The position numbers were made by a program, and so were the translations under genes. 39,929 bases of DNA. Source: Chrysochromulina tobinii. Taxonomy: Eukaryota. Positions 5,436 through 35,500 of this stretch are shown here, piece by piece; positions within the stretch are counted from its first letter, which is position 1, and the number at the start of each line of letters is the position of its first letter. The stretch covers positions 1-39,929 of the forward strand of contig JWZX01003328.1 of the NCBI GenBank assembly GCA_001275005.1, read 5' to 3'. Below the pieces are notes generated by a model. The model was not told the origin of the DNA. It made no database searches and was given only the letters and a program-made list of their open reading frames with translations.

Positions 5436-7159
5436 CTACGCCTTGTGGGCTCGCAGATGTGACATCGCGTGCTCCCGCAGCAGCTCGCGCAGCTCCACGG
5501 GCATCTCCGTCGACTGCCAGCACGTCACCTCGGCCGTGGCCGCGGCGAGCTCGCCTGTGGCGTCGCTCACGAGAAGCTGCAATTTCGCCAGCTGTGGGCC
5601 TAGGGCCGGGTCCTCGATCGAAGCGCCCTCGTGAGAGACGGAAGCGGAGAGACGTGCCCGGTTCAGCAGCTCCTTGAGCACGGCGGCCGCTGCTTTGGCC
5701 GCCGCTGGGCTCGGCGGCACGGCTGGCGGCGGCGGCGGCGGCGGCAGTGCAGTGCCCCCCCCAAGGAGAACCTCCGTCGGGGACGGTGCATTGGGGCTCT
5801 CGGACTCGAAATAGCCGACGCCCGCGTAGAGGGTGCCACGGGCATGTGTTGGCAGTGGTCGCAGATGGCTCGGCGAGACGCCCTCGCCCGTGCCCATTTC
5901 GCTCTCGTTCGAGTCGCTGCCCTGAGCGACCCCCGTTAGGCGCTTGAGCTCGCTCTCGCTCTCGCTGCTGCTCGAGGCATGCCTAGCGCCCTGTTGGGCG
6001 GCGAGGCGTGTGACGAAGCATCCCTTGGTACGCAGGGGCGCGTTCTTGCTCAGCCGCCACGGGTACGTGACCCAGCCGCCGCCCAGGCGCGCCGCGGCGT
6101 GGAAGCGCTTCAGGAGCGTCGGCTGATCGATCGACGTGTTCGCCGTTGCCTCGAGCACCTCGGCGAGTGTACGCCCTACAAAGGCAGGTGAGGCGCCGTG
6201 CGCGAGCAGGAGGCCGTCTGCCGTGCACACGAAGCCGTACATGCCATGTGCATGGCTGTCGGGCTGCGGGGGCTGGGCTGCCGGCGGCACCAGAGCGTAC
6301 CCGACCCCCGCATAGAACTCCTGTCCCCACTGTGTCACCTTCGAGATCCAGGCTCCCTTGTGCTGCAGCTTCTGGGTGGAATCGTTCCTCCATGCGTAAC
6401 TCACCTAATGAGGGAGGTCATCAGAGGTCATCAGAGCTGTGTGGAATCGTTCCTCCATGCGTAACTCACCTAATGAGGGAGGTCATCAGAGGTCATCAGA
6501 GCTGTGGAATCGTTCCTCCATGCGTAACTCACCCAATCGCCGCCCGCCTCGGCGGCTTGCTTGAAGCGCTCGTGCAGCGCCTCGCCGTCCACCTCATGGT
6601 TGCTCGTGAGCTCGAGCACCTCGCTCAGCGTCTTGCCGACGAACCGCTGATCGGCGCCGTGCGCTACGCACATGCCTGATTTGTAATTGAACACGAATCC
6701 GTAGAAGCCGGCGGTGCGATCGAGGCAGAACTTGACGCTCTTGCGCTCGGACTTGGGCGAACCAACTTTGGTTCCGAGGCTGTCCTCTGCCTCGGAGCCT
6801 GCGTCAGAGCTTGGCAATCCGCTGTCGAGCTCGGCTGAGGTACTGCGGCGGCGGCGGCGGCGGAGTGCCGGCTGCACGATTGGCTTCGTGGCCGGTTCGA
6901 GCGGCTTCGAGTCGACGAGCCAGCCCCACTGATGAGCCCTCGCGTCATCCAATACTCCGCGGTCGTTCTTGTGCTCGTCAGTCACTGAGAAGGATGGGCG
7001 TCTGCGAGGCGGTCTCTCTGACTCTGGTTTGATATCCTCCTCCTCCTCCTCCTCCTGCATCCATAAATGGTAAATGATGTAGGCGGCTACAGCGCCGGCG
7101 GCGACGGCGCCAGCGGCCACCGTCGCAGCTCTGCGCCACCGCGTGCTCGGTCGACTCAT
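5436..7159 (-). CDS. N-terminally membrane-anchored protein with two tandem single-Cache-like sensory domains (~531 aa); exons 7159-6533 and 6404-5436
   Basis: Hydrophobic segment AATVAAGAVAAGAVAAYIIYHLW. Two copies of YGFV..G..AHGA...FVG[KR]TL.EVLE...F..AA..GG.WV.Y.WR....KG......YAGVGY. Splicing TGG|GTGAGT...CATTAG|GTG restores GGDW-VSYAWRNDSTQKL. Confidence 0.75.
6405..6532 (-). other. Spliceosomal intron (128 nt) made of two tandem units (63 + 65 nt), each = 29-nt copy of the downstream exon start + CTGATGACCT-repeat 3' splice cassette
   Basis: GTGAGTTACGCATGGAGGAACGATTCCAC occurs at 6504-6532, 6441-6469 and, as the exon, 6376-6404. Each intronic copy is followed by (AC)AGCTCTGATGACCTCTGATGACCTCCCTCATTAG. 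Confidence 0.85.
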
Positions 7160-7302
7160 GAGACGCGAGAGACGTCTCCCTGACCCACACGCTAGTGTCT
7201 CTTTCGCTGCGGAATTCTTGAAAGCATTTTGGAGTGGGGGGAGTGCTTTCATACATGTGAATGGGTCGCCTCCCTCGTTTTTGTGAATTCCTTCAGGACG
7301 CC

Positions 7303-8661
7303 ATGGCGCCCCTCGCTTTCTTTCTCCTGTTTGTTGCCGCGAGCCCGCTCGTCACATGTGCGCTTGCCGATGGCGGCAAAAGTCCGCCTGCGCGGCGCCT
7401 GAAGGCCAACAAGTACGCCCAGTTTTCCAAGGCGGACGAGGTTCGGCGCTCGCTGCGCTTCTCGAACGTGGACGATGCCTTCGGTGATGAGGTCACAGCA
7501 GAGCAAGCCAAACCAACGGCTGAGCCGCTGCGCGAGCGCGAAAAGTGGGCCTACCCAGACGCAGCGCAGGTTGACCAGCGCGACCCGACTACCTTTGGCT
7601 TCACGGAGATCGGCGTCGTGCTTGGCGCCCATGGCACACGCGGCGAGCTCAAGGTCTTGTCAGACTCAGACTTTGCTCACGAGCGCCTGTGCCACGCCGG
7701 GCCAACGTGGATGCGGCGCCCACGGCGGCGTGCGCCACGCGAGGAGCGCGTGCTGCGCGGGCGCAAGGGACCGGGCACCAATGTGTTCCTCGTGACGATC
7801 GAGAGCGTGCGCAGTCGTGAGGTGAGCACGCAACGTTCACTGCCGCTGTGCACCCCGCGTGCTTCGCCCTTTGCCCGTGCTGCGATCCTCTCAGCGCGCG
7901 CCCACGCGCTCTTGTGTGCACCTTCGACGCAGGCGGCCGACGCGCTCAAGGGCTCGACGTTGCACGTGCGTCGCGAGCTGCGCCCGGAGCTGGGGGAGGA
8001 TGAGTTCATGTTGTGGGAGCTCGAGGGATTGAAGGTGTACCTGGCGCTGGCTGTTGGGAAAGATGGTGTGGCGAGAGAGGAGGCGTCGAGCGCGAGTGCG
8101 GAAGGGCACGCATCAGCTCCAATGGATGGCGCCGTGACGGGCGCCACTGGTTCTCGATCTGCGGACACGACCAGCTCTGTGGCGGACGGTGCGCTGGCGT
8201 ACGTTGCAGGGGCATTTGTTGGCGTCGTGAGCGGACTGATCCCGCGCGAGGAGCTCACTGGCAGCCGCGAGCTCGGTAACGACCTGCTCGAGATCACCCT
8301 TTGCTCGTCCGTGCGTGGCGCCACCGCCGAGGGCGAGGACGAGGACGATGAGAATGACGTCGAGGATGCGTCCGTTGATGACGCTGATGACGAAGACAGT
8401 GACGTGAGCGCATCCGACCACGAAGGCGGCGAGGCGGGCGGTGACGAGGAGGACGGCGACGAGGATGAGAGCGTGCTCGTACCCTACGTCCCGCAGATCG
8501 TGGTTGACGTCCGGCTCTCTGAGGGCTATTTGCTCATCGACCCGCCGAAGGGGTTGCTCAAGATCTGCATTCAGCCCAAGCGGCGCGTACGCGTCGTCAT
8601 CCGTGGCTTGTTACCGGAACGCGCGCAGAGCCTCCTCGTACGCGAGAGCAGTAGTAGCTGA
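7303..8661 (+). CDS. rimM: Ribosome maturation factor RimM, probably plastid-targeted; exons 7303-7821 and 7933-8661
   Basis: IGVVLGAHGTRGELKV, SRE|AADALKGSTLHV, DEFMLWELEGLKV, NDLLEI, LVPYVPQIVVDVRLSEGYLLIDPPKGLL. Signal-like N-terminus MAPLAFFLLFVAA; 111-nt GTGAGC...GCAG intron. Confidence 0.9.
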   Translation: MAPLAFFLLFVAASPLVTCALADGGKSPPARRLKANKYAQFSKADEVRRSLRFSNVDDAFGDEVTAEQAKPTAEPLREREKWAYPDAAQVDQRDPTTFGFTEIGVVLGAHGTRGELKVLSDSDFAHERLCHAGPTWMRRPRRRAPREERVLRGRKGPGTNVFLVTIESVRSREVSTQRSLPLCTPRASPFARAAILSARAHALLCAPSTQAADALKGSTLHVRRELRPELGEDEFMLWELEGLKVYLALAVGKDGVAREEASSASAEGHASAPMDGAVTGATGSRSADTTSSVADGALAYVAGAFVGVVSGLIPREELTGSRELGNDLLEITLCSSVRGATAEGEDEDDENDVEDASVDDADDEDSDVSASDHEGGEAGGDEEDGDEDESVLVPYVPQIVVDVRLSEGYLLIDPPKGLLKICIQPKRRVRVVIRGLLPERAQSLLVRESSSS

Positions 8662-9191
8662 AATGCGCCCATCGTGGTTGGCCCACGAGGAGTAGCACAC
8701 ACCCTTGCATTTGGTTCTACATTAATTCTACACGTAGTAGATTAATTTTAATTACTCGGACCGTCTTCGCGTCTGCGATCTCGGTTCTCGAGCTCGCCGG
8801 TCGGCTCCGCAGCGGCCTTTCCGCGCACGGCGCAGCTCGCCCGGCTTTGATTCATCAGCATTCAGATTCACCGTCAACAGGCGGACGCGCCGATCGCCGA
8901 TTGCCCGAGTGCCGAGATGGCAGTTGGCAGATGCACGTCCTTGTCGCTTGTGGCCGTGGGACCTGGGACGGTGGGAGTATTCCCTGCGTTTTGGAACTCC
9001 CGGGTGCGAATGCCATGGTGAATGCACTCGCCTTCCCGTTTTGTTCCACATTATGTTCAACAGGGGAGTCGGTCCGGGCGCGGGCGCGACTCCCCCATGA
9101 CGCATGAGGTTCACGCTCGAGGCCTCGAGCATCACGCGACGCACGTGTGGCTGCCAGGCTCGAGGAGCGTCGACGGGTGGCTGCTAGCACT

Positions 9192-9219
9192 ACTGAACTG
9201 AACTGAACTGAACTGAACT
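9192..9219. repeat. (ACTGA)n pentanucleotide microsatellite
   Basis: actgaactgaactgaactgaactgaact. Confidence 0.9.
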
Positions 9220-9356
9220 ATCTCGAGACCTGAGAGGAAAGCTTTGTGTCAATTTGTGAATTCGAACGTTTTGGGAAGTTGCCAATCGTGCTTCTTGGTC
9301 GCCCGCGCGAAAAACGTCCCTGCTAAAACGCCTCCCGTCAGCACTTTCCGTCCAAG

Positions 9357-10076
9357 ATGTACAATGCGAGCACAGCTCTTTTGTCTGCTAGGTTGGCAGA
9401 GCCTTGCCCATGGTGGTCCATGGGCCCGCGCCAGGCGTCGGGGTCCTCCATGCGGTCCGGGATTCGCAAAGGGAGGAAGGGCGCGACATTGCCCCGCCGC
9501 AACAGCCTCTCACCTCCTCCCTTGCTGCGACAGGCAACCGTGACGCGAGACGATGCGGTTGCCGCGAAGTTCTTACTATCGCCTGATGCTCAGCAGCCCA
9601 ATCTCATCCTCCGGCTCAAGAGGGAAGGAAAAGAGTGGAAGTGCGTCTCCTTCCCACAGTTGCCCCCGCAATCACCTCCGGAGCGCACAGCCTGCTTGCC
9701 CGGCCCATGAATCCCACCGTATCTGTCGCCTGCTCACGCCCACCTGCACAGGTGTAGTCCTTCGACCTCGCCGAGCACGGCAGGGCCGCTCGTCTCACCT
9801 GTCGCACAGCGCCGCGAGCCACGTGCGACGTGGAGTCCGATGAGGCCTGCGTCATTCGGATGCAGCCACGAGTGCACGCGCGAAGAGAATGACCACGAGC
9901 TGAATGATGCTGGTATGCAAGAACGTGAAGTATGGGGTGCTACGCCGATGCGGCTGCGACAACAGCTGTCCGTTGGAGTACCGCGCGCGCCGCAATCTGC
10001 TTCAAGGATCCAATTTCAGTACACAGTTTCGAGCCCGCGCCCGGGCGCGGCCGGCGAGGCCGCGGCAGGCGCGTGA
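9357..10076 (+). CDS. Possible small spliced hypothetical gene (structure uncertain)
   Basis: Exon-like segment ATVTRDDAVAAKFLLSPDAQQPNLILRLKREGKEWK is flanked by a pyrimidine-rich ...GCGACAG acceptor and a GTGCGT donor (~9641), with a ...TGCACAG acceptor near 9751. No recognisable domain. Confidence 0.25.
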
Positions 10077-10341
10077 CCCCACGTGAGCTTACAGCTTTAG
10101 ATCAGTACGCATATTATTAACGGTATGCAAATTATTGTGTGTTTAACGTCGCTATCCCGGGAGGTCTGTCCTTCGATTACTGAGGGTAGTTCGAGATCAG
10201 ATAAAACTCATTGTCACGTCCATGCCAATCTGACGTGATCGGGCGTTGCGAATCGGCGCAGTTCTCGGGAGATCGGGATCGCGCCTCTGAGACTTGCAGT
10301 CAAAACGCTCAGGACACATTTCGAGGTGCTGCCGACAGGGC

Positions 10342-11802
<1,461 letters not shown>

Positions 11803-12362
11803 TTGGTGCGAAAGTCAGTGCGTGACGATTTGTTCCGAGAACGCGAATGTCTTTCGGCAGTCAAAGTATTTATGGTCACCCAACTCCCAACAATCGGCGT
11901 CATAAGGAGGCAGTATCCACTAGCTCGAGGACCCCTGGACCCCATCACCACAACCAAACTCGAGCCGCCGGGCCGGCCTCAAAGGCCGGCCGCGCTAAAT
12001 CGCATTTAATCGCTCAGCCTTATCTAGATTCTAGAAGCCATATTTTAGGACGCCAGGCGGCCAGAGCGTCCAAAAGAAGGCGCATCTTCGCGTCTTCGGA
12101 TCCCCATCGCGTCCCTCCGCCCACGGTTATGAAAAAGGCCATACACACGAAGAGGCCGCGTGTAATGATTTTCTGATGACGTGTTCAAATCGATTGATTG
12201 ATTCATCTCAAATCGTGTCCACGTCATTTTCGAAAGAGTTTTTTATTCATTAGGAGGATTCCAATTAGGGAAACGCATCTCATACTACTGCGCAGTAGCA
12301 CCTCCCGAGAGCGAGCGGTCACAGCCTTGGATGGCGGAATTGTTGGCGAGCTTATTTCGGTA

Positions 12363-13769
12363 ATGGACGTCGACGCGGGACGAGAGCCGCACCCGGGTCA
12401 ATTGGTCTTTCAACCGTCGACGTCGGACGAGTCTTCCGCGGCTGCTTTCCTCGCTGGAGTAAAGTATGCCGGGAGGGGCGCCGCACGACAGAAGAGAGAT
12501 AAGGAGGCTGCAGGCATGCAGGAGGAGGAGACTGGAGATGGTGCGCCCGCCTCCTCTGACGCCGATACGGCCCACGCGGCCTCCGTCCTCGCGCACGTGC
12601 GCGGCGCGCTGGAGGCCCATGACGCGGATGTCGATTGTGACAAGGGGGAAACCCCAGATGGGACGATGCCACCAGCCAAGCCGCGCCGAACGCGCCAGAG
12701 CTTCTCATGGCGCCAGGTGGCCGTACTCGAGCAAGTCTTCGAGCAGGATCCCATGCCGCTCCAACTCCTGCGCGTCCAGCTCGCCGAGCGGCTGGGCGTG
12801 CAGCCTCGCACCGTACAGGTGTGGTTCCAAAACCGGCGCCAGAAGCAGAAGCAGCTTCAGCAAGCGATGGGCCAGAACCCGCCCTCGTTCCGTGCGTCGC
12901 ACCCGCGGCTCGTCTCGCTCCCGCCGTTGCAGCATGGCGGGGGCTCCTTCGCCGTCCCGCAGTCCAGTGGCGTGCCAGTTGCCACGGAGTACATGCCTGC
13001 GCCGGGGGCGACCATGGTGGCAGCGCCCCTGGGCCAGTACCTGTACGCTGCCTTCCCGCAGGCGCAAGGCCCCATCGTGACTCCGCCTCAGAACTCTTAC
13101 CTGCAGCCGCAGGTTGGCCCATCGCAGCTTCGATCGGCCAATGAGACGGCAGCTGAGACTGTGGACCATGCGACAGCGGCTGTCGCGGCCGCCGTGGCTG
13201 CGGCAACAGCCTCGGTGATGGTGGGGGCGGCGGCGCCGCCATCAAAGGGCGGGACGCCACTGCCCGCGGTGCCCATGCCAGGGTACGCTGGCATGCAGTA
13301 CTACTCGCAGCTGCTACAGCAGCACCCGCAGCATGCGGCTTCGGTGCAAGCTGCTCAATACGCCGCGCAGCAAGCCGCACACGCGGCCGGTGGCTCTTTT
13401 GTGCCCGGTCCGTCCTCCCAACCGCCCCTCGGCTACATGACTGTGAGCAATGGCCCGGGCAGGGATCGCCCGTTCGGGGCGATGGGGGCGCAGATGGACT
13501 CGCCGATGGTGCCGGTGCCGGTCTCGCAACTGACGAACACTCCAACCGTCTCGATGGCAATGCCGCTCGCACAAGGTCAACCGCAGTCGCGGCCGCCACC
13601 GCCGGGTCAGATCCAGTTCTATGGGACAGCATTTACGCAATTACCGACTGCGGCGAATGTCAGGGGGCTGTCACAGGGTCGGCCGACGATGCTGCACAGC
13701 GTGACCCCCGTCAACCCAACGCCCTTCATGGACGCACCCGGCGTGCACCCGCCAGCAGCAGTGCCGTAG
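12363..13769 (+). CDS. Homeodomain transcription factor with Q/P/A-rich C-terminus
   Basis: KPRRTRQSFSWRQVAVLEQVFEQDPMP...LAERLGVQPRTVQVWFQNRRQKQKQ (WFQNRR helix 3, Q50 class). Confidence 0.9.
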   Translation: MDVDAGREPHPGQLVFQPSTSDESSAAAFLAGVKYAGRGAARQKRDKEAAGMQEEETGDGAPASSDADTAHAASVLAHVRGALEAHDADVDCDKGETPDGTMPPAKPRRTRQSFSWRQVAVLEQVFEQDPMPLQLLRVQLAERLGVQPRTVQVWFQNRRQKQKQLQQAMGQNPPSFRASHPRLVSLPPLQHGGGSFAVPQSSGVPVATEYMPAPGATMVAAPLGQYLYAAFPQAQGPIVTPPQNSYLQPQVGPSQLRSANETAAETVDHATAAVAAAVAAATASVMVGAAAPPSKGGTPLPAVPMPGYAGMQYYSQLLQQHPQHAASVQAAQYAAQQAAHAAGGSFVPGPSSQPPLGYMTVSNGPGRDRPFGAMGAQMDSPMVPVPVSQLTNTPTVSMAMPLAQGQPQSRPPPPGQIQFYGTAFTQLPTAANVRGLSQGRPTMLHSVTPVNPTPFMDAPGVHPPAAVP

Positions 13770-14387
13770 GCTGTGCATCGAGGGGCATACGGGTGTTGCG
13801 CCCCACCCGCCGGGGTTGTGGCTGCCCAATCCGCCCAAGTCGGCGGGATGAGGGGTATGTGCCAGTGTGCACTGCGCTCCGCTCGATGAAGCTGCCGCGT
13901 GCCGCCTGCAGCGGATGCCAGCGACGATCGACAGCGGATACAAGCCATGTATCCATGTACAATGCTACAACCCTGTTGGTGTGAGGAGTGAGCATCAGCA
14001 CATGAGGACATACAATGCCTCTCCGAGGCTCTCGCCGGCGGCTAATGATGATGTACACCGTGTAGGTGGCACAAGCTAACCCGTCAAGAAGCATGCTAAC
14101 GTCAAACGTGAGAGCAATTGCGTGACGATTGGTCAGTGGTGCGGCGGTGTTTGCTCTGTCCTGTGAGAGACGCTGCCCGCTGCGACACCGCGCCATGGAA
14201 ACGCCGCGGATGTCCCCGGAGGCGTCCCCAAACGCACAGTCGCATTCACAAATCACAATGTCAATGAGATAGGAGGGGCGCAGGATTCGCGTTGTGCGAT
14301 GCGTCAGGATGCGTGTTGGTGTGTTGTGAATGTCTGTGCGTGTTGGTGATGTGTTGTGAATGAATGACTAGCTGCTGGCGACGCTCG

Positions 14388-17300
14388 ATGTCGACTGCCG
14401 ATATCATCGGTTCCCTCCTCGCGTCGGCGGCGGACGCTCTGCTCGACGAACCGGCGCGGCGCCATGCGCTTGGCCAAGTGAAGCTGCTGCAGGCACCACC
14501 GGAGGTCGTACGACCGGCAGTGCCTCTGTTGCTCCGCTTGCTTGAGGACCCTGCCGCTGATGTGCGCCGGATGGCGCTGGCTCTTGTGGAGGATGCAGGG
14601 CGCTCATGCCCGTCGACCATTCCCGAGCTGCTCCCGGCGCTGCTCACCAGGCTTAGCGACGAGAGTGCGCCCACGCTTAAGCGCGCCCTGGCAGCTGCGA
14701 CGTCGCTCCTCCGACCGACGCTTGTACTGCTGCTTGCTGAGAAGGATGAGGCTGCTGCCAAGGCACTCGAGCCCACCTGGGGGCACCTCCGCAAGCTGCG
14801 CGAGACAGCGGGCACGCTCCTCAACGCCGCGAGCGCCGCCGATTCGGTGCGCACTGCCGCCGTCAAGGCATGTGAGGCGCTGGTGCTCGCCTACACGGAC
14901 GAGCCTGAGGATGAGGGCACGGAGTCAGCGGAGGGGCCGCCTGGCGCCGATGTGACCAGTGGCGGCAGCGGATGGCGCCTGTCGGCGCTGCCTGCTGCAG
15001 CCGCGCTCGAGGATGGCAATGGTGCCAATCGAGGCGTACACGTGGGCGAGGGCGGCACGAGCGGCGCCGAGAGCAGCGGCAACGAAGGCGGCGGCGAAAC
15101 AGGTAGTGAGGGCGCCGCTGCTATCACGGCAAGCGAGGAGAGCAAGCTCGGCAAGCGGCCACCCCATCCGCTGCTCGAGCGCGCGGCACTCGAGGCCGAA
15201 GGCGAAGCTACCCTCACTTTGCTCGAGACGACGCTACTAGCGCCGCCCTCAGCGACAGTTCTGCTGGTGCTGCTCACGTCGATCGCGGCGCTTGCCCGGC
15301 AACGTCGGGTGCTGCTGCAACGGCTGAGCCGCACGCTCGCGGCGCTGTCGCGCGCTCTGCTCGAGCGCGCTGCCTCGCTCGCCGCGCTTCCGTCCCATCA
15401 GGTCGCCAACGCTCAGCAATCTCTACGGGCGGCGCTCCTGACTCTGCTCAAGACGACGCGCGCACGTGAGGACCGTGCTGTTGAGGAGGAGCTCGCGACG
15501 GCGCTGCGCCACCTCGGCGCGAACGAGCAGCTCAAGCATCTGTACAAGCTGATGGGCACCGAGCCCCCCCCGCTGCTCGGGGGGGGCGAGCGAGGCGCGT
15601 CCGAGAGCGCCGTATCGGGCGCCGGATCGAGCGCCGTATCGGGCGCCGTATCGAGCGCCGTATCGAGCGCCGCTGACGGCAGCGGGAGTACCAAGCGTGC
15701 CACTGCCGATGGCACCGAGGGAGGCGACAGCGCGTTCGCAGCAGGTCCGAAGCGCGTTAAGACCGAGGGGGCGCCCACGGCGGCGCTCGCGACGACGACG
15801 ACGACGAGCAGTGGAGGCAGTGCTGCCGCCTCGGCGCGCCTGGGGATGCCGCCGCGCCCGCCGCTGCTGCCCCCCGCGGAGCTCGAAGCTCTCCTCTCTC
15901 GGCTCGGGCCGCATCTCGTGGCGCAGCTCGTGATCGCCTCCATGCCGTGGCTGCCGCCGCGCCCGCCGCCGCCGCCGCCGCCGCCGGCTGGTACCGGTAC
16001 GGCGCTCGAGCGCAAGCCCATGAAGCTCAACGCTCCCATAAAGATGGACGCGGCGGCGTGCGCGTCGCTGGCGGAGGCGGCCCTGGCGAGCCTGATCGGC
16101 GACGATAGGGAAGCACAGCTCGCGGCGAGAGGGCTGGCCGAGGTGCGCGCACTCCTCCTCGGACGACGCGCGGCTGCATGCAAGTGCTCACCACGGCGCC
16201 CTCCTCTCCCCACAGGTGCGCGCACTCCTCCTCGGACGACTCGCGGCCAAGCAGCGCGCCGATGGCCCTTACTGTCACGCACTCGCTGCCCACGTGCTCG
16301 CGGCGCCAATGGAGCGCCTACCGGTGGCTCTCGCCTGGTTGCATGCAGAATTCGCCGAGCATGGGAGTGGCGCGACGGAGGTGGGCGGTGCTCAAGGCGG
16401 CGCCGCGAAAACGGGGGAGACGGCGTCGCCCAGCCGGTACGATGTGCTCGCCATGTCGCTGCTGCCGCGGCTGCGCCGTGCCCTGCCGCCCAATGCACGC
16501 GCCGCCGTCCAGGTGCTCTTGGATGTACCCAAGCTCATGTCCGAGTGGCTTTCAAAGCTCATTGAGCTCGAGGGGGAGGAGATGTGGCGACCGGGGCTCG
16601 CGGCCTACCGCGAGCTGGCGATGCAGCGCGACGCGCTCGGGCCGGCGTGCCTGCGCGCGCTGCTTCAAGTGGCGACCTCGGCTGGGGAGTCGGCTGGGGA
16701 GGCTGAGAGGCGCGCACACGCGGTCAAGATCGTGACGGCTCAGCTGCTCCCTTTACCTCGCTTCGCTTCGTTGATTGGCGGCTTTGCCGAGGCGCAGCTG
16801 CGCCGCCTCGTGGGCGCGTCCACCACCGCCCATCCGACGGCCAGCTGCGTCGGCGACGGGATGGACGTGTCATCGGACGGCGAGATGGCCGAAGACTCGT
16901 GGGCCATCAAGAGCCATCAGGAGGGCGAGGAGAACGAGGACATCCTCACGGCGCATGTGCAGCTCTACCTCGCAGTGGTTGCCAAGGAGCCCGCACGGCT
17001 GTGGCCTCTGCTCGCGCACTTTGGCGGCGCCTCGGCCGGCGCGCAGGCGGTGCTGGTGCGGAACGCGCCCCTGCTCGTGCCGCACATCGACCCCGTCGAG
17101 TTGGCGTCCCTCCTTGTGAGAGCGATGCGTGAGATACGGCCCCTTGACCCTAGTGCGCCGCTGATCCTCGCTCTACTCACGGCCGTGGCCGCCGGCTCGC
17201 CTACCGGTTCGCCGCCCGCACCGCCTGCACCGCCCGCGGCGCTCGTCGAGGGCACGCTTGAGCTCTGCTGCACCGAGCTGCGCGATGGCCGGTATGCAGT

Positions 17301-17931
17301 GCCGCTCCTACCGTTTGCTCCACGCCCGCTCGTCGAGAGCGTCCTGCCGCGGCTGCTCGGCATGGCACCGGAGACGGCGTCTGCGGCGCTCGCGGCGCTG
17401 ATGCATGCGAAGCCGCCGCCGTTGCCGCCGGCGCACCTGTTGCTGCTGCTGCACCAGCTGCCCTCGGATGGGTCTGCAGGCGTCAGCCTCAAGCAGCTCA
17501 TCGACGGCGTGCAGGCTTGCCTTGCAGAAAAGTCGGTGTTCACGATGCAGGTGGTGGCGGACGCGCTGCAGCTCATCGTGCATCTGGATCCGCTGCCGCT
17601 CATCTTCATGCGCACGACGATCCAGGCGCTCCTCTACCACCCGCTCCTCGCGCAGTTCACCATGGGCCTGCTGCACCACCTCATCTCACGCCAGATCTGG
17701 ACCTCGCCGCGGCTCTGGACGGGCTTCGTCAAGTGCTGCCAGCAGGGCATGCCTCACTCGCTCCCAGTGATGCTCGCGCTGCCCGCGCCGCAGCTGCTCG
17801 AGATTATCGAGCAGCAGCCCGAGCTGCGCCCGATGCTCATCAGCTACGGCGCCATGCATCTGAGCGAGGTTGACGACGACGTCAAGGAGGCTCTCGGGCT
17901 CACCGAGGAGGAGGAGGTGCTCGATATTTGA
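14388..17931 (+). CDS. SYMPK: Symplekin (pre-mRNA 3'-end processing scaffold), ~1156 aa; exons 14388-16142 and 16216-17931
   Basis: N-terminal HEAT-like repeats; C-terminal DPLPLIFMRTTIQAL...LISRQIW...LWTGFVKCC...SLPVMLALPAPQL typical of Symplekin_C. A 73-nt phase-0 intron joins the two long ORFs in frame. Confidence 0.85.
16143..16215 (+). other. Spliceosomal intron (73 nt) whose first 32 nt duplicate the downstream exon start
   Basis: GAG|GTGCGCGCACTCCTCCTCGGACGACgCGCGGC...CTCAC...CCCTCCTCTCCCCACAG|GTGCGCGCACTCCTCCTCGGACGACtCGCGGC (31/32 identical). Confidence 0.85.
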
Positions 17932-18187
17932 GATGGTGGTGCCGGTCGGCGGCCGGCACCACACGGCCACGGGCATCGGCGGGCCGGGAGTTGTTAACAG
18001 CCCATTCACGCAGCTTTATACTCACCGATGTAGCGCGGCTTGTCGGCCCGCGTCGAGCTGTTTAAAGAAGCAGCGCTTGTTCACAGCCAATGGTTTAATT
18101 CGGCACCCAAGACACCGGACCGGCGTACATACAGTGTTGTTCACACCTCAAGTCGACGCAGCACCAGGGCGCGACAAACGTCGCGAG

Positions 18188-18793
18188 ATGCCCACAGACG
18201 CTGAGAGGCTCGCGGCCTGCGACGCGGAGGTTGCATCGCATCGTGCGAAATTTCCGGACGTGGCACACATTGAGCCAGAGACGCTTCGGCAAATGCAGTC
18301 CGATGGGCCGGTGTTGCTGGTCGACGTGCGCAGTGACGCAGAAAGGGCCATCTCAACCATCCCGGGAGCACTGCCGCTCAGCAAACTGCCGCGGCCACTA
18401 CCAGACGACGTCCCGCTGGTGACATTTTGCACAGTGGGCTTCCGAAGTGCACTGGAGGCGAGGCGACTGTTATCGACTGGAGGCGAGGCGTCTGGGCGAG
18501 CCGTGTACAGCATGTCTGGCGTCTTGAAGTGGGCCCACACTGGTGGTGTGTTTGTGGACGCAGGTGGTAACCCAACCCGACGCTTGCACGTCTTCGGTGA
18601 GAAGTGGCAAGCTCTTGCACCCAGCCACGTGGAAGCCATCATTTTCAGCACCGTGAGCCTAGGGCTGTTTCGTGCCGTCCTCCGGGTGCCGATTGTCATG
18701 CTCCAAACAATCGGGCAGCAGTTTCGGCTCGCTCTTGCTCGCCTCCTCGGCCTAGCGCCGCCAGCAGCAACCCACAAGGATCGCTCAAGTTGA
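18188..18793 (+). CDS. Rhodanese-like domain protein
   Basis: LLVDVRSDAERAISTIPGAL, active-site loop VTFCTVGFRS, SMSGVLKW. Confidence 0.85.
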   Translation: MPTDAERLAACDAEVASHRAKFPDVAHIEPETLRQMQSDGPVLLVDVRSDAERAISTIPGALPLSKLPRPLPDDVPLVTFCTVGFRSALEARRLLSTGGEASGRAVYSMSGVLKWAHTGGVFVDAGGNPTRRLHVFGEKWQALAPSHVEAIIFSTVSLGLFRAVLRVPIVMLQTIGQQFRLALARLLGLAPPAATHKDRSS

Positions 18794-19200
18794 ACAGGAG
18801 GGCGTCGCCGGCCCGTGCTTGCAGGGAACATGCAAACAACGAGAAGTGGGTAGTGGTGGCCGTGCTTCGCCGCCGAGCCGGAAACCGTGAACGTGGATCC
18901 GTCGGATCGAACGCGTCGGCGCCTCGGCCCGCGGCCGGCTGCGTAGCAAATGTTCTTAAATAAGTTCGGACAAGCCTGTGCGTACTTTAGCCCACACCAC
19001 CGTTCGGCGCAGCGGCCTTTGCGTCGACCTCGCACGGGACCCGCCACACGGGCGCACACCGGACCGCCGCGCCGGTGCCGTCACGGTTCGGTCTCGTTGT
19101 CAACAATGATGAGCCCACATAGAGCCGACCGCGGCCGTTCCCCATCCCCCGACGGCACGAGAGAGCTAACGACCCGAAGTGCAGTGTTGACCTACATTCA

Positions 19201-19475
19201 TTACTGCGTTGTGGCTGATGCGCTCTCCATACGCGTCAACCACGCAGGCCTCACCATGTGACGGCCACGGCCGCGCGGCGCCAAGCGGACGGGCTGACGA
19301 TCTTCTGCCGCACCGCTGCCGGTCGCCGGCAGACCCCACATAGCCTGAGTCACATTGTAGGCCTCCTCAATCTTATGCTGTCGGAGGGCCTCCTGCTTGG
19401 AGGCCCGCGATGAGAAGTCGAGAGGCGTACCATCTTGGCGCCTCATCATGGGCTCGAGAGGGCCGCCTCCGTCTA

Positions 19476-19521
<46 letters not shown>

Positions 19522-20373
19522 GCCACCGCCGCCGCTGGTAACGCCGCCACACGAAGCCGTGGTGTTTGACGATGGCGCTCCTGACGCGGCGGCAGCCGCG
19601 AGGGCTTCGTACTCGACATAGGCGGGGTCGTCGCCTTCGAAATCGCCTATCTCGCGCTGGCGCGACGCGCCAGGCGCATCTGCATCCACGTCACCCACGC
19701 CGTCGGTCACCTGCTGCCACTGTTGCTTCCGCGCCTCAGCCTCTTGCCGTATTCTTTGGCGCACCTCCTTTGGCGCGAGCTCTGCGTCTCCGTGTGCAAA
19801 CTGGCAGCGCTGGCCTCGCTTGCACTTGCCCTTCCCGCCCTGAAAGAGTGGGCAGCGCTGTAAGAAGAGCCCCTGCCGAGGGCCTGGCGGCGGCATGCCC
19901 GGACCGGTGGAGCCGTATCGTGGAGCAGTACGACCCTGGGCCAAACTAATTGGCGGCCGCCAGGACGCCTCGGGCTGCGCATAACCACGGCGGTCGTCCC
20001 GCTCACGACTGCCATTGTGGCGCTGCGGTGCCACGGGGCCGCCGCGCTCCGGCGAGGGCGAGCGTGAGCGCCGCCCGCGGCCGCTGCTGTCCTCAGTCAG
20101 CTCCTGGAGCCATGCAGGCCGTGTGGCCGGCTGCTGCTGCTGCTGCGGCGGCGGCGGCGTCAAGTGCGCGACGTCGTACCCGGCATCCTTACAGGCCTGG
20201 AGGTAGGCGGCACATGCTGCAGCGTACTCATCCGGTGTCTGATACTGATAGGCAGCGGCAGTGTCGCCCGCATCAGATGGTGGTGGTGGTGGTGCAGCAT
20301 CTTCCTCGGGTGGCGGCGGTGGCAGCTCGTCTGGAGGTGGCGGAGGTGGTACGTCATGACAGTGGTCCGCCAT
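19201..20373 (-). CDS. CCCH zinc-finger, Pro/Gly-rich putative RNA-binding protein
   Basis: CPLFQGGKGKCKRGQRCQFAHGDAEL; RSRSPSP segment; C-terminal GRGRHMVRPAWLT. Confidence 0.75.
19477..19534. repeat. (GCC)n trinucleotide tract encoding poly-Gly on the minus strand
   Basis: Run of gcc codons with two gcca interruptions. Confidence 0.9.
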
Positions 20374-20596
20374 GCTAAAGAAAGCTATTCACAGATTTGT
20401 ACGGGTTTTCGCAAAAGAGAGTGTGAAATACGGATAGAACACACGCGTCTCACGTTCTTTGCAACGTATTTTGGGGGAATTGCGCGACTGTCTTGCGATT
20501 TTTCCCCCGCCGATGTGCCCACGACGGCCACCCGAGCGAAAAAGGGTTCCGCGTTCAATGGTGAAGGGGTTTCTCTCCTCGGTACATGCACTCATC

Positions 20597-21898
20597 ATGG
20601 CCCACGAACAGCTCTTCACCTACACTGTCTCCTTTGGGAGCTTCTACTTGTTTGTCCTGATCTCCTTCCAGATGGTCAAGTCACCTGACTTCAGACGTGA
20701 CCGCGACAGGCTGTCGCGGCTGGTGCACGCCTGCGTCGTTGGTGACGAAGATATCAAGCGGAAGGGAGGCGGAGCTTTCGATGCTGACGAGTCAAGACCC
20801 GAAAGCTTTGCCGCGTCCGCGATGCGGCTGACCGTGTGCTCGGTCGGCATCCAGGTGAGCTACCTGCTCTGGGGTCTGATGCAGGAGCGCATCATGACGA
20901 AGCCGTACGAGACCGGGGAGCTCTTTCGCAGCAGCAAGTTCCTCGTCTTCGCCAATCGCATCCTCGCACTCTTCGCGGCCTGGGCGATGATGTGCTACAC
21001 AGGTGAGCCCGTGGTGCGCTGCGCCAATGGCGCGCCGCTGTACAAGTTCTCGTACTCGTCAGTGTCGAACATCATGTCCTCGGTGTGCCAGTACGAGGCG
21101 CTCAAGTTCGTCTCGTTCCCGACACAGGTGCTCGCCAAGTCGTGCAAGATGGTACCCACCATGCTCATGGGCTACGTCGTGTCGCGCCGCGTGCACGCCT
21201 GCTTCGAGTACGTGGTGGCAATGGGCGTCACGGCGGGCGCAGCCATGTTTAAGCTGTTTGAGACAAACGACGCACCGGTGAAAAACACCGAGCTTTGGGG
21301 CATCATCCTTATCACCGTGTACATGGTGCGTGACTCATTTACCTCCAACTGGCAGTCGGCTGTCTTCAAGGAGTACAAGGTCTCCTCGACAGCGATGATG
21401 CTCTACGCCAACCTCTTCTCCTCGGCGTTCACAGCTCTTGGGCTGGTGCTCACGCTCGAGGGGGTGACGGTGTACGCCTTCCTCGTGGCCAACCCCTCGT
21501 GCGTGCTCCATATCGTCACCATGGCCATCTGCTCCGCTGTCGGCCAGCTCTTCATCTTCTACACCATCAAACGGTTCGGACCAGTTGCGTTCGCGACCAT
21601 TCAGACCGTGCGCCAGTTCCTCTCAGTCGTGCTCTCGATCCTCTTCTTCGCGCATCCGATCAATCTGATGATGGGCTGTGGCATCGCCATCGTCTTCCTC
21701 TCGCTCGGAGCGGAGGTCTTCCATCAGTGGAGGAGGAAGCGCACCTCGCCCGGCCACAAGCCAGAGCCCCTCACGCCGCCCTCTGAGCTCGAGAGCCAGC
21801 GTGACGCGGACAGCATGTCGGATGTGGGCGACCATGCCGGCGATCGCTCAGACCAGCCCTCGGCGGCGCTCCTCCGCCCCTCGGCCGCGCGGTGGTGA
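20597..21898 (+). CDS. SLC35B2: PAPS transporter 1-like (SLC35B2 / UAA nucleotide-sugar transporter family)
   Basis: GIQVSYLLWGLMQERIMTKPY, FLVFANR, SNIMSSVCQYEALKFVSFPTQVLAKSCKMVPTMLMG, DSFTSNWQ, SAVGQLFIFYTIKRFGPV, TVRQFLS. Confidence 0.85.
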   Translation: MAHEQLFTYTVSFGSFYLFVLISFQMVKSPDFRRDRDRLSRLVHACVVGDEDIKRKGGGAFDADESRPESFAASAMRLTVCSVGIQVSYLLWGLMQERIMTKPYETGELFRSSKFLVFANRILALFAAWAMMCYTGEPVVRCANGAPLYKFSYSSVSNIMSSVCQYEALKFVSFPTQVLAKSCKMVPTMLMGYVVSRRVHACFEYVVAMGVTAGAAMFKLFETNDAPVKNTELWGIILITVYMVRDSFTSNWQSAVFKEYKVSSTAMMLYANLFSSAFTALGLVLTLEGVTVYAFLVANPSCVLHIVTMAICSAVGQLFIFYTIKRFGPVAFATIQTVRQFLSVVLSILFFAHPINLMMGCGIAIVFLSLGAEVFHQWRRKRTSPGHKPEPLTPPSELESQRDADSMSDVGDHAGDRSDQPSAALLRPSAARW

Positions 21899-22576
21899 AT
21901 CTCGACCGCCCTTGGCGGCCGGCTTGGAGAGACACACCCGCCGCACCCGGGTGTGTTGGGCGACACACAGCCCCCCCGCGCAGTTTGAGATACGCGTACT
22001 TGTCGCAAGTTGGAGATTTTTAGTAGATAGCAAGGGTCATTCTACAAAAGTTTGAGGTATTTCCTTAATCCTTTGTCGTAAGGTATCTGGATAGCAGCTG
22101 CCCGCTCACGCGTCTCAGGCTACTACATAGAGGGGCGGCCGCGGACCCGCGCGGTTACCGTTAGTCGGAATATAATAATTTATTTAAATCGGCACCGGCC
22201 GGGCCCGGCCGGTTATTCTAGTTTCGATTAGGGCCCGGACGACCCTTACCGACCTGTTTGGCGGAACACGTTTATTCTCGTTTGAATGAGGGTGTACAGG
22301 GTCCGGCTAGGCGCCGGGTAATAACTAATTTGTAACATGCGTACGACATCGGCGTACGACATCTTCGGCGTACTACTGGTCTAGCCTTTCCCGCGGATTG
22401 GATTCCCCAGCTCCACCCCAGCACCCACTGCACGCCTTGTCCCCCATCCATCCCGTGAGCCGTGTGGCTGCCACGCCGGATCGCCCTCGGCCAAAGCAAT
22501 CAGGTAGCTGCCAACCCGTGTGCGCTGCGTCTTCTACGTTTGGGAGGTGATACTAGTAAACATGTGGGTGAATGGA

Positions 22577-29961: not shown

Positions 29962-30069
29962 TGGGATGGGTTTGTCCCGGCGCCCCCGGAGTTTTACGGT
30001 TTCGTGAACGCAAAGTTTCACACATGTTGCTCGCCGTCGGCTGCTGCCGTCGGCGAAGGCGACACTGTC

Positions 30070-32579: not shown

Positions 32580-35500
32580 CTATTTTGTGTCTGATTTTTC
32601 TCGAACTGCTGTGACGGCCCGCTGGTTGTCGCGTGCGACGAGCTGCTCGTAGTAGACGCGCACGCCTTCAAGGTTGGCCGGGTCCGCCTCGTACTCGATC
32701 GCCTTCTTGAGCCGAATAAAGAGCCACTCAGCCATCGAGTTGGAGGTGATGCGCTCATACGCGGTGTTGAAGATGGCGATGAGCAGGTTGAGGAGCACAA
32801 AGTACGAGGTGACGATGAAGGACCAAAAGAGTGCGGAGGCTCCCAGCTGCACGCTGGGCGAGAGTGGCTCAATCATATCGAGGCTGGCGCCGCCGGCGAG
32901 CCACAGGCACATCTGGGACACGATGGACATGTAAGAGTAGTCGAAGGAAAGGCCTTGGGAGAGCGACGCGAGGTACTCGGACGAGACGCCAAAGTGGATG
33001 AGCGAGTAGAAGCCGTTGGCAAAGCCCACGAGCACGATGCCGAGCACAACCGCGAAGCGCACCGAGTCCGAGAGCATCTGGGTGACAGTGATCAACAGCG
33101 GGCCGAGCACCTTGAAGATAGCGACCAAGTTGAGGATCGAGAGGGCGAGGGTCACTTGCAGCGCGCCATCGAACAGCGCGAGGACCTCGGACAAGGACTG
33201 CACGAGGTCATTGTTATTCTCAAGGTCCACGGACGTGGCTACGCGCCACGCGGTCACGACGGGCACGAAGGCGAGGGAGTACAGGTCGAGTGCCTCGAAG
33301 AAGTTGAGGGATGCGGGTTTTGAGCGCAGACGGCGCAGCTGGTCATTGCCGAAGAGGGCCCAAGAAACCGCCGAGGCGCTAGTGGCCGCGTAGAAGAGGG
33401 GCGTCCCCGGCTCGCCCACGCTCGCGACGAAGACGGAGAACGCCATGGCGGAAAAGATGCCAAAGCGGTTTCGGTAGCGCTCGCCCGCGAAGGTGGACCA
33501 TTTACGCTCGAGTAAGTCGAGCATCAGAGGAGTCTCGAGGAGCTCTTTGCGCTCATGGCGCAAGATGAGCTCCTCGATGGTCACAGGCTGCCCCTTGCCA
33601 TCACGCAAGACGAGCGGCTTAAGCGGCTTGAGCAGTTTCGAGTCGGGCGCGGTTTCGAGTCGTTTCGAGTCGGGCGAGTCCGCCGCTGGCACGCCCTCGC
33701 CGAGCACGCCCGTGCCTTCCTCGGCGCGCGAGGGCGGAGCACTCTGGTCTTCGCTGAGCGGCAGCACGATCCCCCCGAACGAGTACCAGTACAGGTCGTT
33801 GCCCCACCATCGATACTCGAATCGGCTTTTGGCGTTCAGGAGCTCAAGCGCGAGCTCAGGCATCGTCTCGATCGCCATCGAGAGCGGCGAGCGGCCGCCC
33901 TTGTTGATCGCGAAGCCGTCGACGCCCACGCCCAGCAGGAACCGGGCCGCTCCGATGTCACGCGAGGACTCGAGCAGCGTGTGGAGCGGATTGGAGAGCT
34001 CGGCATCCACCTGATGAGGGGGCCCATCAAGAGCAATCAGTGGCAATCGGTGGCACTCAGCGGATGGGAGAGCTCGGCGGAAGGTATACCTCGCGGAAGA
34101 CCGAGGGTGGCAGGTGCTCACGCAGGTACTGGAGCACCTCGAGCTGACCGTTGAACGCGGCCGCATGCACAAGTGAGAAGAGTGGCGCGTCCTGCAGCAG
34201 CCACTCGAGACGTTGGCGCAGGTTGCACCCCGCCTGTCGGAGCATCTCGAGAGCCACCACGTCGCCCTCGAAGCATGCGTGCACTGCCGGCCCTCCCCAA
34301 TAAGTGGGCGGGAAGTTCGGGTCGGCGCAGCCGGAGGCGAGCACGTCTTTCAGGAGCTCGAGGCGCTCTGCCTCGGACACCCCAACCATCGAGCGTCGGA
34401 AGTTGCCCTCGTCGGGTCGCACTAGCAGGCAGAGCGGCGTGCGGCACCACCCTTCGAGCTGCCGCTCACCCGTCGAGCTGTTCAGCATCGCGGGCGGGTA
34501 GACAAAGTTCCAGTCGATCTCGGTGAGCGCGCGGATGGTGTTGAGGTCACCCGTCTTGATCGCATCGAGGAGCAACACCCGCTCCGCTGTCAGGTAGTCG
34601 TTGAGCTCGATCTCATTGCCATACTTCGTCTTGAAGCGGCGGTAAAGATCATCTTGCACGCGCAGCACGTCTACCGCGTCGTCGCCGAAGCCGCGCGACA
34701 GCGAGCCCTGGATGCGGCTCTCGATGACCCCGAGCCTCGCGGCATCCCTCTCGGCGGTGCTGTCAGACCTCCTAGAGCCGCTGTTGGAGGTGGAGGCTGC
34801 CGCCGCGAGCTGTTGGCGCACGTCGCTGTCGAGCAGCCGCATGTACTCAGCAGCCTGCATGTTGGCCACATTGGCGCGATTGGCGGCCTCGTCATAGGTG
34901 CTAAGCCGATCCGAGGCAGCCAAGAGCGCACGCTCGTACTGCAGCGAGTTCCAGATCAGGTCCGTCGCCATCTTGGAGAACTCGTCGAATGAGAGCCTCC
35001 CATCGCCGTTCCTATCGTACTGGTTCAAACGACGCTTGAGGTCTTTCGAGCCGCGAGTGAGCGAGGTAATGCCCACCTGCTCGAAGGCGATGTGCAGCTC
35101 GTTGGGGCCCAGGAATCCGTCGCGCGGCAGCGAGTCGAGCTTGTCGAACAGATCCCGCCACAACACCACCCGCCGTCGCTTGCGTAGCCAGTCGCGGGCG
35201 ACCGCGGTGATGCGCACGCCCGTCTTCGCGTACGCGTTCGCATTCCAGGGGGTCTTGAGCGTGCGCATGAGCACGCTGAACTCATCGAAGTTGAGAACGC
35301 CGTCCTCGTCTACATCGACCTCTCTTATCAGGGTCTTCAGATCGTCGGCAGGTGGGATATCCAGTTCGAGCCGCTTCAGCACCACAAGCAGCTCACGCAG
35401 GTCGATATTTCCATCGCCGTTGATGTCACACTCGTCGAAGCAGCGCTTCCATAGGCGGGCGGACGAGTCCTCGAAGAAGTCGAGCAGGCTCCCGCGTATG

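Follow-up and report, generated by a model that had tools for sequence, protein, structure and literature searches.

Short introns in a freshwater haptophyte alga that combine duplicated exon sequence with a piece common to other introns

Many short introns of this freshwater haptophyte are made up of two parts, sequence duplicated from the adjoining exon of their own gene and a segment that recurs in further introns. The origin of new spliceosomal introns is an open question. Current surveys attribute mass intron gain to transposon-derived Introners and regard gain by break repair or tandem duplication as isolated events (PMC9860276, PMC12130899). What is seen here is a hybrid at the scale of a family, a route that standard surveys would probably miss. 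It may also be self-propagating and transposase-free, with introns seeding new ones mostly within their own gene, a reading to which we give a little less than an even chance; the donor intron would provide one splice site and the branch point, and the duplicated target exon the other splice site.

The analysis started from a window of 39,929 nt of Chrysochromulina tobinii, the whole of contig JWZX01003328.1, in which the initial annotation had described three introns in unrelated genes as a copy of the downstream exon start followed by an acceptor cassette. For FEN1, the best named matches are haptophytes, at 67-71%. All three introns were located at the coordinates of that annotation, although I1 proved to consist of a 63-nt and a 65-nt unit in tandem, both made of copy and cassette (Table 1). 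The identities it had given were reproduced: 29/29 for I1 (6405-6532, minus strand), 31/32 for the first 32 nt of I2 (16143-16215, plus strand) against the next exon start, and 19/20 for I3 (34011-34089, minus strand), in which an 11-nt remodelled donor precedes a 20-nt copy of exon positions 7-26. Each is in phase 0 at a G|GT junction, and taking them out leaves continuous frames for a Cache protein, symplekin and an EF-hand/ion-transport protein. The N- and C-terminal Pfam domains of symplekin lie in separate frames unless I2 is removed, and the terminal TAG of I1a is an in-frame stop. In a scan of all GT/GC..YAG pairs in the window, I1 and I2 gave 22/22 matches, and no such pair reached 19 or more in 10 Markov-simulated windows; I3 was missed by this ungapped scan because its copy is offset. 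Local alignment of the intron start with the next exon gave scores of 29 (I1), 29.5 (I2) and 17.5 (I3), compared with 5-6 for the four RNA-spliced ordinary introns of the window, which have no significant exon copy at either end. Based on read depth and loose ends, cassette 2 of I2 is a high-copy sequence in both RNA and DNA-like runs, and the degenerate cassette 1 of I3 is also found ungapped in the DNA-like run X15.

Table 1. Coordinates of the three introns, their parts and their host genes in the window
Feature	Position	Strand	Description
Cache-domain protein gene, host of I1	5436..7156	-	start approximate; ORF unbroken in the sister lineage
Cache-gene exon 2 start	6376..6404	-	29 nt, begins GT; duplicated target of I1
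I1b, 65-nt unit	6405..6469	-	29-nt exon-start copy (6441-6469) and cassette 1 (6405-6440)
Cassette 1 of I1b	6405-6440	-	two CTGATGACCT units; terminus CCCTCATTAG
I1a, 63-nt unit	6470..6532	-	29-nt exon-start copy (6504-6532) and cassette 1 (6470-6503)
Symplekin gene, host of I2	14394..17931	+	1139-1142 aa ORF unbroken in the sister lineage
I2 5' half	16143..16174	+	32-nt copy of the next exon start, 31/32; gives the GT donor
I2 3' half, cassette 2	16175..16215	+	likely branch point GCTCAC, C-rich tract, CAG
Symplekin exon 2 start	16216..16247	+	duplicated target of I2
EF-hand and ion-transport (TRP-like) channel gene, host of I3	32580..35793	-	limits are ORF limits
I3 degenerate cassette 1	34011..34058	-	10-nt repeats; terminus CCCTCATCAG
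I3 decayed exon-start copy	34059..34078	-	19/20 against 33985-34004
I3 remodelled donor	34079..34089	-	11 nt replacing the first 6 nt of the exon

The RNA joints in the window comprise the four ordinary introns and I1, across which a polyA RNA contig (run X11) skips 128 nt with CT..AC ends, removing both units at once. Read mapping gave no joint at I2 or I3, and since RNA cover is thin there (0-3.7 at I3, with no listed RNA contig bridging I2), the missing joints count neither way. Splicing is shown by RNA at I1, and that of I2, I3 and 41 metagenome sites is predicted from their reading frames. That the structures are assembly artefacts or unspliced repeats is extremely improbable. Repeats can be misjoined in short-read assemblies, and I2 and I3 are without an RNA joint; however, artefacts, which the earlier reading had named as fatal to it, are ruled out because the exon-start copies have diverged, independent assemblies agree to the point of identical loci, and RNA joins across I1. 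In addition, I3 is intact in another DNA-like run, intron removal restores the frames, and homologues are seamless.

A metagenome scan for the cassette-1 acceptor end, in a sample selected for a following GT, placed this family in introns of many unrelated genes, at at least 142 loci (collapsing homologues leaves 142 independent sites out of 159; loci are numbered with L). Among the loci listed, 62 of 120 scorable terminal cassette-1 ends score at least 10 for a copy of the exon start, against 0.5% of 596 swaps. These copies measure 11-55 nt with a continuous spread, shorter ones dropping below the score threshold, and their identity is 0.78-1.0; mismatches to the exon fall at codon positions 1/2/3 in 13/9/12 cases, without bias. 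The other 58 of the 120 listed ends are below the threshold, many of them looking short or decayed by eye, not by score. Exon-start copies were also found at 13/23 cassette-2 ends (1.1% when swapped), and a flanking direct repeat scoring at least 12 at 86 of 159 isolated cores among the loci listed (1.5% in controls). Shared acceptor pieces between long direct repeats of host sequence, as the initial annotation had proposed, thus occur at many unrelated genes, and its view that the duplicated GT serves as donor is supported. Two of its generalizations hold in part. Phase 0 applies to the three window sites, but the 41 confident sites split 21/5/15 over phases 0/1/2, as predicted from where exonic GT is available. 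The sample was selected for GT, which makes the phases follow GT, and phase was for this reason rejected as evidence for new intron positions. A next exon beginning with GT is common but not obligatory (17/23 cassette-2 ends and 7/15 unselected cassette-1 ends). The family pieces are in sense orientation in 41/41 confident frames.

What was not borne out is the idea of a single fixed portable cassette, as the inserted piece is a variable part of a family intron: its 3' part, its 5' part, its middle or, in a few cases, the whole. The sites can be written as T-S-T, where T is the end of the upstream exon (Y) followed by the start of the downstream exon (X), and the intron is X+S+Y. In class X, to which the three window sites belong, only the 3' part is shared; S gives the branch point and AG, and the copy GT. 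In the mirror class Y only the 5' part is shared; the shared piece brings GT with the branch point, and the intron end copies the upstream exon, from which AG comes. In class Z, AG|GT is within T. A shared piece stands between the copies in every scored site, and AG|GT lies within the repeat only in a minority. Automatic classification counted X 49, Y 6, Z 12 and none 19 but was partly wrong: several of the Z calls are in fact tandem units, and some class-X sites whose donor is remodelled stand among the "none" calls. The mirror cases are therefore cited by eye: L001, L026 (two), L043, L047, L056, L064 and L130. Cassette 1/cassette 2 chimeras were found at L026, L127, L130 and L137.

Pairwise alignment of 30 homologous or overlapping pairs provided sites with and without the insert. 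The locus L029 carries a 79-nt class-X intron, and its 98%-identical homologue L050 has no intron, a single copy of T and a continuous frame; a 57-nt T-S-T insert in L081 is missing from L062/L115. At least one family intron is thus present in one strain and absent from another. An exact junction-string search among the loci for the joined, empty forms of up to 77 duplicated sites gave none. In a sister lineage (proteins 91-96% identical, contigs up to 45,885 nt), the proteins are seamless across I1 in 11/15 members and across I2 in 8/15 listed, a reading made from proteins, not DNA, that assumes an intron-blind gene caller, as UTR-extended starts support. At this protein level, the absence of the symplekin intron from a related lineage, which the earlier reading anticipated, agrees with the ORF unbroken across its position, and empty single-copy sites exist for L029 in DNA and for I1 and I2 by protein. 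One sister-type Cache protein (P0169) begins exactly at the exon-2 GTG and may be an interrupted allele. The comparisons leave gain and loss unpolarised, as L050 and the sister lineage could have lost their introns through recombination between the repeats.

The model that we favour, if only just, is a double template switch. The growing DNA strand would leave the exon, pair through a few matching bases with an existing family intron, copy part of it, often from a neighbour in the same gene, and rejoin the exon upstream of the departure point, so that the target is duplicated. Selection would retain products with exact splice junctions in exons, other products persisting only where neutral, and every new intron could become a template for further ones. 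The T repeats would likely permit unit expansion, as in I1, and precise loss, until the copy decays, as in I3. We infer the template switching, the direction of gain, the enzyme and a DNA rather than an RNA template. This model is preferred over a fixed cassette because of the empty sites, the mirror class, junction microhomology, and the clustering and variant sharing of neighbours. Microhomology at the junction of copy and repeat array, scorable in only 24 sites, most others having filler in between, averages 1.63 nt against 0.42 nt, with at least 2 nt in 11/24 against 7.4% (p=4e-7); filler is present at 7/11 cassette-2 junctions.

Neighbouring introns share private sequence. The L029 intron and one 448 nt upstream have a private 21-nt stretch in common, in which even the base at a variable site is that of the strain; the insert of L081 is identical to the cassette of its neighbour and has matches of 4 and 2 nt at its ends; and two introns of L102, 202 nt apart, have a private 41-nt end in common. 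The 8-mer Jaccard similarity of cassettes is 0.126 for neighbours against 0.045 (permutation p=2e-4), and at least 6 nt of exon start are common to neighbours in 5/41 pairs against 2.9% (p=0.009), the neighbour pairs not being independent. Later gene conversion could be an alternative source of this similarity. Family sites occur at 0.73/kb near another site and at 0.075/kb in the window, an about tenfold clustering. The three window sites count against the model: they are separated by 9.6 and 17.8 kb, are not all of one type and have no source close by, so that distant jumps or lost sources are needed.

The main rival, which we hold to be possible though rather unlikely, is retro-copying, in which the endonuclease of a non-LTR retrotransposon would nick the target site and its reverse transcriptase would copy RNA there, either that of a family intron or the pre-mRNA of the gene itself (target-primed reverse transcription). 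An RNA template fits the same junctions, a point against template switching from DNA. Variable duplication, a fixed 3' end and a variable 5' end with microhomology are the pattern of non-LTR insertions, for which 5'-truncated inserts and variable target duplications are expected. Class X fits it, with its duplications of 11-55 nt, 3' end fixed at AG and variable 5' end with microhomology; the mirror (3'-truncated) and middle-piece inserts contradict it. The last 20 nt of cassette 1 can fold into a short hairpin; as for terminal inverted repeats, the six sequences folded gave only this hairpin in the last 20-30 nt, the opposite end being host copy. In L029 the target copy is perfect and the cassette is a few bases off its neighbour's, as error-prone copying would give, and a reverse transcriptase acting on the gene's own transcript would yield neighbour sharing as well. 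However, neighbours share bases past the AG, which are absent from released intron RNA; there is no poly(A) tail, the sense-strand end being a fixed 13-20 nt ending in AG with the repeats internal; and simple local duplications spanning both intron boundaries are often seen at these sites. No long upstream sequence common to loci was found in 134 kb of flanks, nor shared non-family sequence upstream of the cassettes of non-homologous loci among the best 25 of 28 residual matches. Non-LTR introners are reported in the 2025 survey (PMC12130899). Within a scope below genome-wide, no autonomous reverse transcriptase or transposase element and no enzyme was seen, and three scans of viral contigs and one of prokaryote genomes yielded either no match or chance ones that lacked both repeats and duplication. 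A C/D-snoRNA or ribozyme identity of the repeats was rejected, as Rfam on 8 loci gave 16 matches, all below gathering and driven by TGATGA/CTGA words.

Introners likewise form multi-copy families that make spliceable introns at many loci, with one splice site carried and the other from target duplication (PMC9860276, PMC12130899), and families are listed in the survey tables for marine Chrysochromulina MAGs, Emiliania and Pavlovales. Their duplications, where given, are 3-9 bp (PMC9860276), and those of dinoflagellate introner-like classes 4 or 8 nt (bioRxiv 10.1101/2020.10.14.339549), whereas here they are variable, 11-55 nt, and take up to half of the intron; moreover, neither end of the copied piece is constant, and neighbouring introns have variants of it in common. 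Neither the similarity at both ends nor the family-specific short duplication of DNA-transposon Introners was found. As the 2022 pipeline required similarity near both intron ends (PMC9860276), the present introns would be filtered out, and the table of the 2025 survey gives C. tobinii 0 families (PMC12130899). Such a filter would hide families of this type, and the process could be undercounted in other genomes. If the reading is right, thousands of young, reversible introns would be invisible to Introner pipelines, and their birth, expansion, loss and ageing could be traced between strains. Parent and daughter introns can be paired within the same gene, and given these pairs and the filled and empty alleles in natural populations, the mechanism is testable by ordinary population genomics. 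We found no description in the literature of such a family, part intron copy and part exon duplicate.

Mobilisation of a short non-autonomous DNA element by a Replitron- or Helitron-type HUH endonuclease, or by another transposase with variable duplication, is very improbable. Replitron-1 of Chlamydomonas inserts in fixed orientation at RG with variable duplications, as here, and one Replitron locus is recorded in C. tobinii (PMC10288648); in the 62 scored cassette-1 sites, base -1 is G in 46 and base -2 is A or G in 48. This RG bias is also the splice-donor consensus, and neither end is fixed across the family. Replitron-1 elements are, moreover, of kilobase size and carry a Rep gene as well as terminal direct repeats; no such element, and none longer than an intron, was found here. 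In other Replitron families no duplications were seen (PMC10288648).

Related systems are the staggered-break gains of Daphnia, which gave new population-polymorphic introns with a direct repeat of the adjacent exon end and internal repeats (PMC4202315), and the templated insertions of alt-EJ/SD-MMEJ, with microhomology and inserts copied from near the break (PMC7407515). The Daphnia exon-intron repeats reported are 4-12 bp, shorter than here, and the filler here consists of intron parts that can be recognised as one family, apparently a propagating one. In tandem genomic duplication of an AGGT-containing exon segment, an exon duplicate likewise gives a splice site and leaves the mRNA unchanged, but there the duplicate provides donor and acceptor alike, with no foreign sequence (PMC3443670). 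Here the copies are separated by a shared piece that holds the branch point and usually also one of the splice sites, and the event is repeated in many genes.

Finally, a full-length Introner could have been inserted first at AG|GT and one half later replaced by exon sequence, through tandem duplications at the boundary or unequal exchange with an intron-less allele or cDNA, which we consider unlikely. The first route is known from the amphioxus "mirages", tandem units of intron end and exon start (or of the 5' boundary) that are skipped in splicing and vary in number between haplotypes, as at I1 and other multi-unit sites. Mirages, however, amplify an existing local boundary (PMC3087553), and the majority here are single-unit sites without an older intron, carrying a piece that also occurs in unrelated genes. 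Head-to-tail units, 2-6 in number, were found at 17/85 sites, and 68/85 have a single unit without an older intron alongside. Whole family introns with both family ends exist as two clear copies (L034 and the second site of L064), a small minority of the 17 family 5' ends listed in a sample anchored on 3' ends. Against such remodelling, L029 and L050 are plainly filled and empty, and L081 holds the middle piece of its neighbour where homologues have no intron. In its favour, tandem units and duplications over either boundary are frequent, at one site of L026 a class-X intron comes immediately after a mirror intron, and unit number differs between homologues (L018 and L134, L081 and L062).

The window is GC-rich and gene-dense, with Pfam matches that include a Cache protein, symplekin, an EF-hand/ion-transport protein and others; haptophytes are the closest named FEN1 relatives (67-71% identity), and the matching RNA came from freshwater and mixed-culture metagenomes, which makes the host a haptophyte of fresh water. 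The three introns I1 to I3 (see the table), which combine a copy of the next exon's start with an acceptor piece (cassette 1 in I1 and I3, cassette 2 in I2), are present as the initial annotation described them, apart from the unit structure of I1. There, the exon-start copy and cassette stand, and what had been read as a single intron consists of two head-to-tail units of 63 and 65 nt, each with a 29-nt exon-start copy and a cassette. An annotation-free scan of the window recovered I1 and I2 at 22/22 matches, and the same scan of simulated windows (n = 10) gave zero pairs at 19 or more matches. Once each of I1, I2 and I3 is removed, the frame is continuous, in phase 0.

Features of the window discussed in the text, in order of position
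Positions	Strand	Feature	Observation
3086-4009	-	Kinesin-light-chain-like array	Seven 126-nt TPR repeats; ordinary
4400-5400		Very high summed depth of DNA-like run X15	Up to 1725
6405-6532	-	I1, Cache gene	Cassette 1
7822-7932	+	Ordinary intron	Spliced in RNA (RNA joint)
9641-9751	+	Ordinary intron	Spliced in RNA (RNA joint)
10570-10850	-	Ordinary intron	Spliced in RNA (RNA joint)
10641-10773		20/46-nt tandem array	Inside 281-nt intron; unrelated to cassettes
11305-11485	-	Ordinary intron	Spliced in RNA (RNA joint)
16143-16215	+	I2, symplekin gene	Cassette 2
about 18070-18137		66-nt replacement	
34011-34089	-	I3, EF-hand/ion-transport (TRP-like) gene	Cassette 1

The X15 depth and the 66-nt replacement point to other multi-copy repeats near both places.

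RNA bears out the proposed junctions in part: I1 is joined across by one contig of the polyA RNA run X11 (128 nt skipped, ends CT..AC; depth 25.8, shorter side 214 nt), which fits splicing or an intron-less allele alike, and no joint at I2 or I3 is listed among the RNA contigs. At I1, contigs of another run, X1, break off and then resume at a repeated 30-mer, and X15 contains I3 ungapped. We infer the splicing of I2 and I3 from their frames, and for I2 also from seamless homologues. None of the four ordinary RNA-supported introns of the window reaches the copy score for an exon copy; the next exon begins with GT at three of them, and one shares 7 of its 8 first bases with the exon start. They are possibly aged family members.

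One metagenome scan, in which the query was the cassette-1 end plus a following GT, found at least 142 loci. Among the matches listed there were 205 unique cassette-1 ends; 154 had both the GT and sufficient flanking sequence, 120 of them being terminal units, and 62 of these 120 have an upstream exon-start copy with a score of at least 10 (versus 0.5% of 596 swapped pairs). In these 62 listed sites the copies are 11-55 nt long at 78-100% identity, and the introns measure 50-269 nt; the other 58 listed ends fall below the threshold and, by eye, many of their copies are short or decayed. Cassette-2 ends, taken unselected from locus flanks, have a copy in 13/23 (versus 1.1%), and the exon after them begins with GT in 17 and with GC in 4. 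A GC donor from the duplicated exon start is also seen in the class-X introns (the copy brings the donor, the family piece the branch point and AG) of loci L005, L023 and L106, the last with an exon start identical to 9 nt of cassette 2. Frames at 77 sites without a preceding unit were assessed with a codon model that had the window as its training set. Among the matches listed, all 41 confident sites are in sense orientation, with phases 0/1/2 at 21/5/15 (exonic GT: 270/80/194), so that the description of the introns as all phase 0 is right for the window's three sites and wrong for the family.

The inserted piece varies, and the idea of one fixed portable cassette is abandoned. The family has a 5' end of the form GTRCG(T/C)TGAT..., an array of 10-11 nt branch-point-like repeats, uniform per site and variable from site to site, and two alternative 3' modules, joined in chimeras at L026, L127, L130 and L137; L137 also has two different cassettes at one junction, with copies of ~18 and ~32 nt. 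In a mirror class, identified by eye (L001, L026 twice, L043, L047, L056, L064, L130), GT comes from the family 5' end and the 3' end of the intron copies the upstream exon. In L039 and L096, AG|GT lies within the repeat, and the 51-nt L066 insert has no exact splice pair. A direct repeat flanks 86/159 isolated cores among the matches listed (versus 1.5% of controls), and the general form of the inserts is a family piece between two copies of a host stretch (T-S-T). Clear whole family copies are two (L034, L064); remodelling of a whole Introner at the same site is a rather improbable origin.

Alignment of 30 homologous or overlapping locus pairs, a comparison that is unpolarised and fits intron gain or loss, gave one clean filled/empty pair: L029 has a 79-nt class-X intron where L050, 98% identical and itself with the neighbouring intron, has a single T in open frame. 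In addition, the 57-nt T-S-T insert of L081, which may be a truncated paralogue, is not in L062/L115 (93% identical). As for the window, proteins of a sister lineage (91-96% amino-acid identity) cross the I2 junction gap-free in 8 of the 15 listed, in agreement at the protein level with the expected absence from related symplekin genes; the other 7 are fragments missing the junction. The I1 junction is crossed in 11/15, three miss it, and one (P0169), which begins exactly at exon 2, may be an interrupted allele. The contigs that encode the crossing proteins reach 45,885 nt. The UTR-extended starts point to a gene caller blind to introns, and on this assumption I1 and I2 are probably absent from the sister lineage. 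The longest contig is 45,885 nt for each of the sister lineage's FEN1, symplekin and Cache proteins (block 4300-22300 of the window), consistent with one syntenic contig. The half-copy intron phenomenon is real, recurrent and polymorphic; an artefact is scarcely credible.

The family works like an Introner, yet it departs from the described DNA-transposon type in two defining tests, and a HUH or other DNA element is very improbable. PMC12130899, PMC9860276 and bioRxiv 10.1101/2020.10.14.339549 describe Introners in which the element brings the acceptor while a duplication provides the donor; their duplications are short, whereas here exon-start copies measure 11-55 nt. The annotation of an Emiliania Introner family gives it terminal direct repeats of 10 bp (PMC12130899), and the 2022 Introner pipeline required similarity near both intron ends (PMC9860276); the cassette-1 end string is absent from the supplement rows examined of both papers. 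As far as the portions seen go, tandem duplication (PMC3443670), mirages (PMC3087553) and break repair (PMC4202315, PMC7407515) each account for one feature, but not for the shared piece. Parts of PMC10288648, PMC8469720, PMC11282704 and PMC11782384 were also compared. Outside subscription papers and the consensus files of the Introner surveys, no published description of the T-S-T intron architecture was found.

At the 24 sites with an exon copy directly next to a regular array, copy and array overlap by a mean of 1.63 nt versus 0.42, and by at least 2 nt at 11/24 versus 7.4%; most sites outside these 24 have filler in between. Cassette-2 junctions overlap by 1.25 versus 0.43, with just 4 scorable. 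Upstream of the donor, the context is CAG-like at positions -3 to -1 only, a pattern for which selection on splice sites is an equally good explanation. The strongest mechanistic clue is local sharing between neighbouring introns. The L029 intron has a private 21-nt stretch in common with an intron 448 nt upstream, and at a site that is different in L050 and L006 it has the base of its own strain. The L081 insert has the same sequence as its neighbour's cassette, and at L102 a private 41-nt end is common to two introns. Cassettes are more similar within 20 neighbour groups (0.126 versus 0.045, p = 2e-4), and neighbouring exon starts share at least 6 nt in 5/41 pairs (versus 2.9%, p = 0.009). 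Near another site, family sites number 0.73 per kb (49 in 66,845 nt, 15 redundant loci dropped) versus 0.075 in the window, a comparison with one window and non-independent, overlapping loci. Against this clue, the window's own three sites have no neighbouring source, and post-insertion conversion could also homogenise neighbours. A long array of variant repeats is common to the unrelated loci L046 and L108 (some 80 nt at 80%), which are a possible distant source-daughter pair.

We lean slightly towards a double template switch via microhomology into a family intron, with duplication of the target; the switching itself, the enzyme and what would have served as template are all things we infer. 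A growing strand would copy the target, slip via microhomology into a family intron, copy part of it and rejoin the target upstream of its exit point, most easily through an AG|GT-like match common to source and target. Selection would retain products in which the junction is exact and a branch point is present, and thus the middle of the family sequence in both classes; daughter introns would then serve as new sources. The main rival, retro-copying by a non-LTR reverse transcriptase, perhaps off the gene's own transcript, is unlikely. Template switching could well amount to a distinct intron-gain mechanism, which we put forward tentatively. The T repeats would also permit unit expansion and, probably, precise loss, until the copy decays as in I3; 2-6 units occur at 17/85 sites among the matches listed, and unit number varies between homologues. 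Plain tandem duplications over the 5' exon-intron boundary are frequent at family introns (L026, L130, L001, L042, L019, L031, L084, L101), pointing to a high local rate of duplication.
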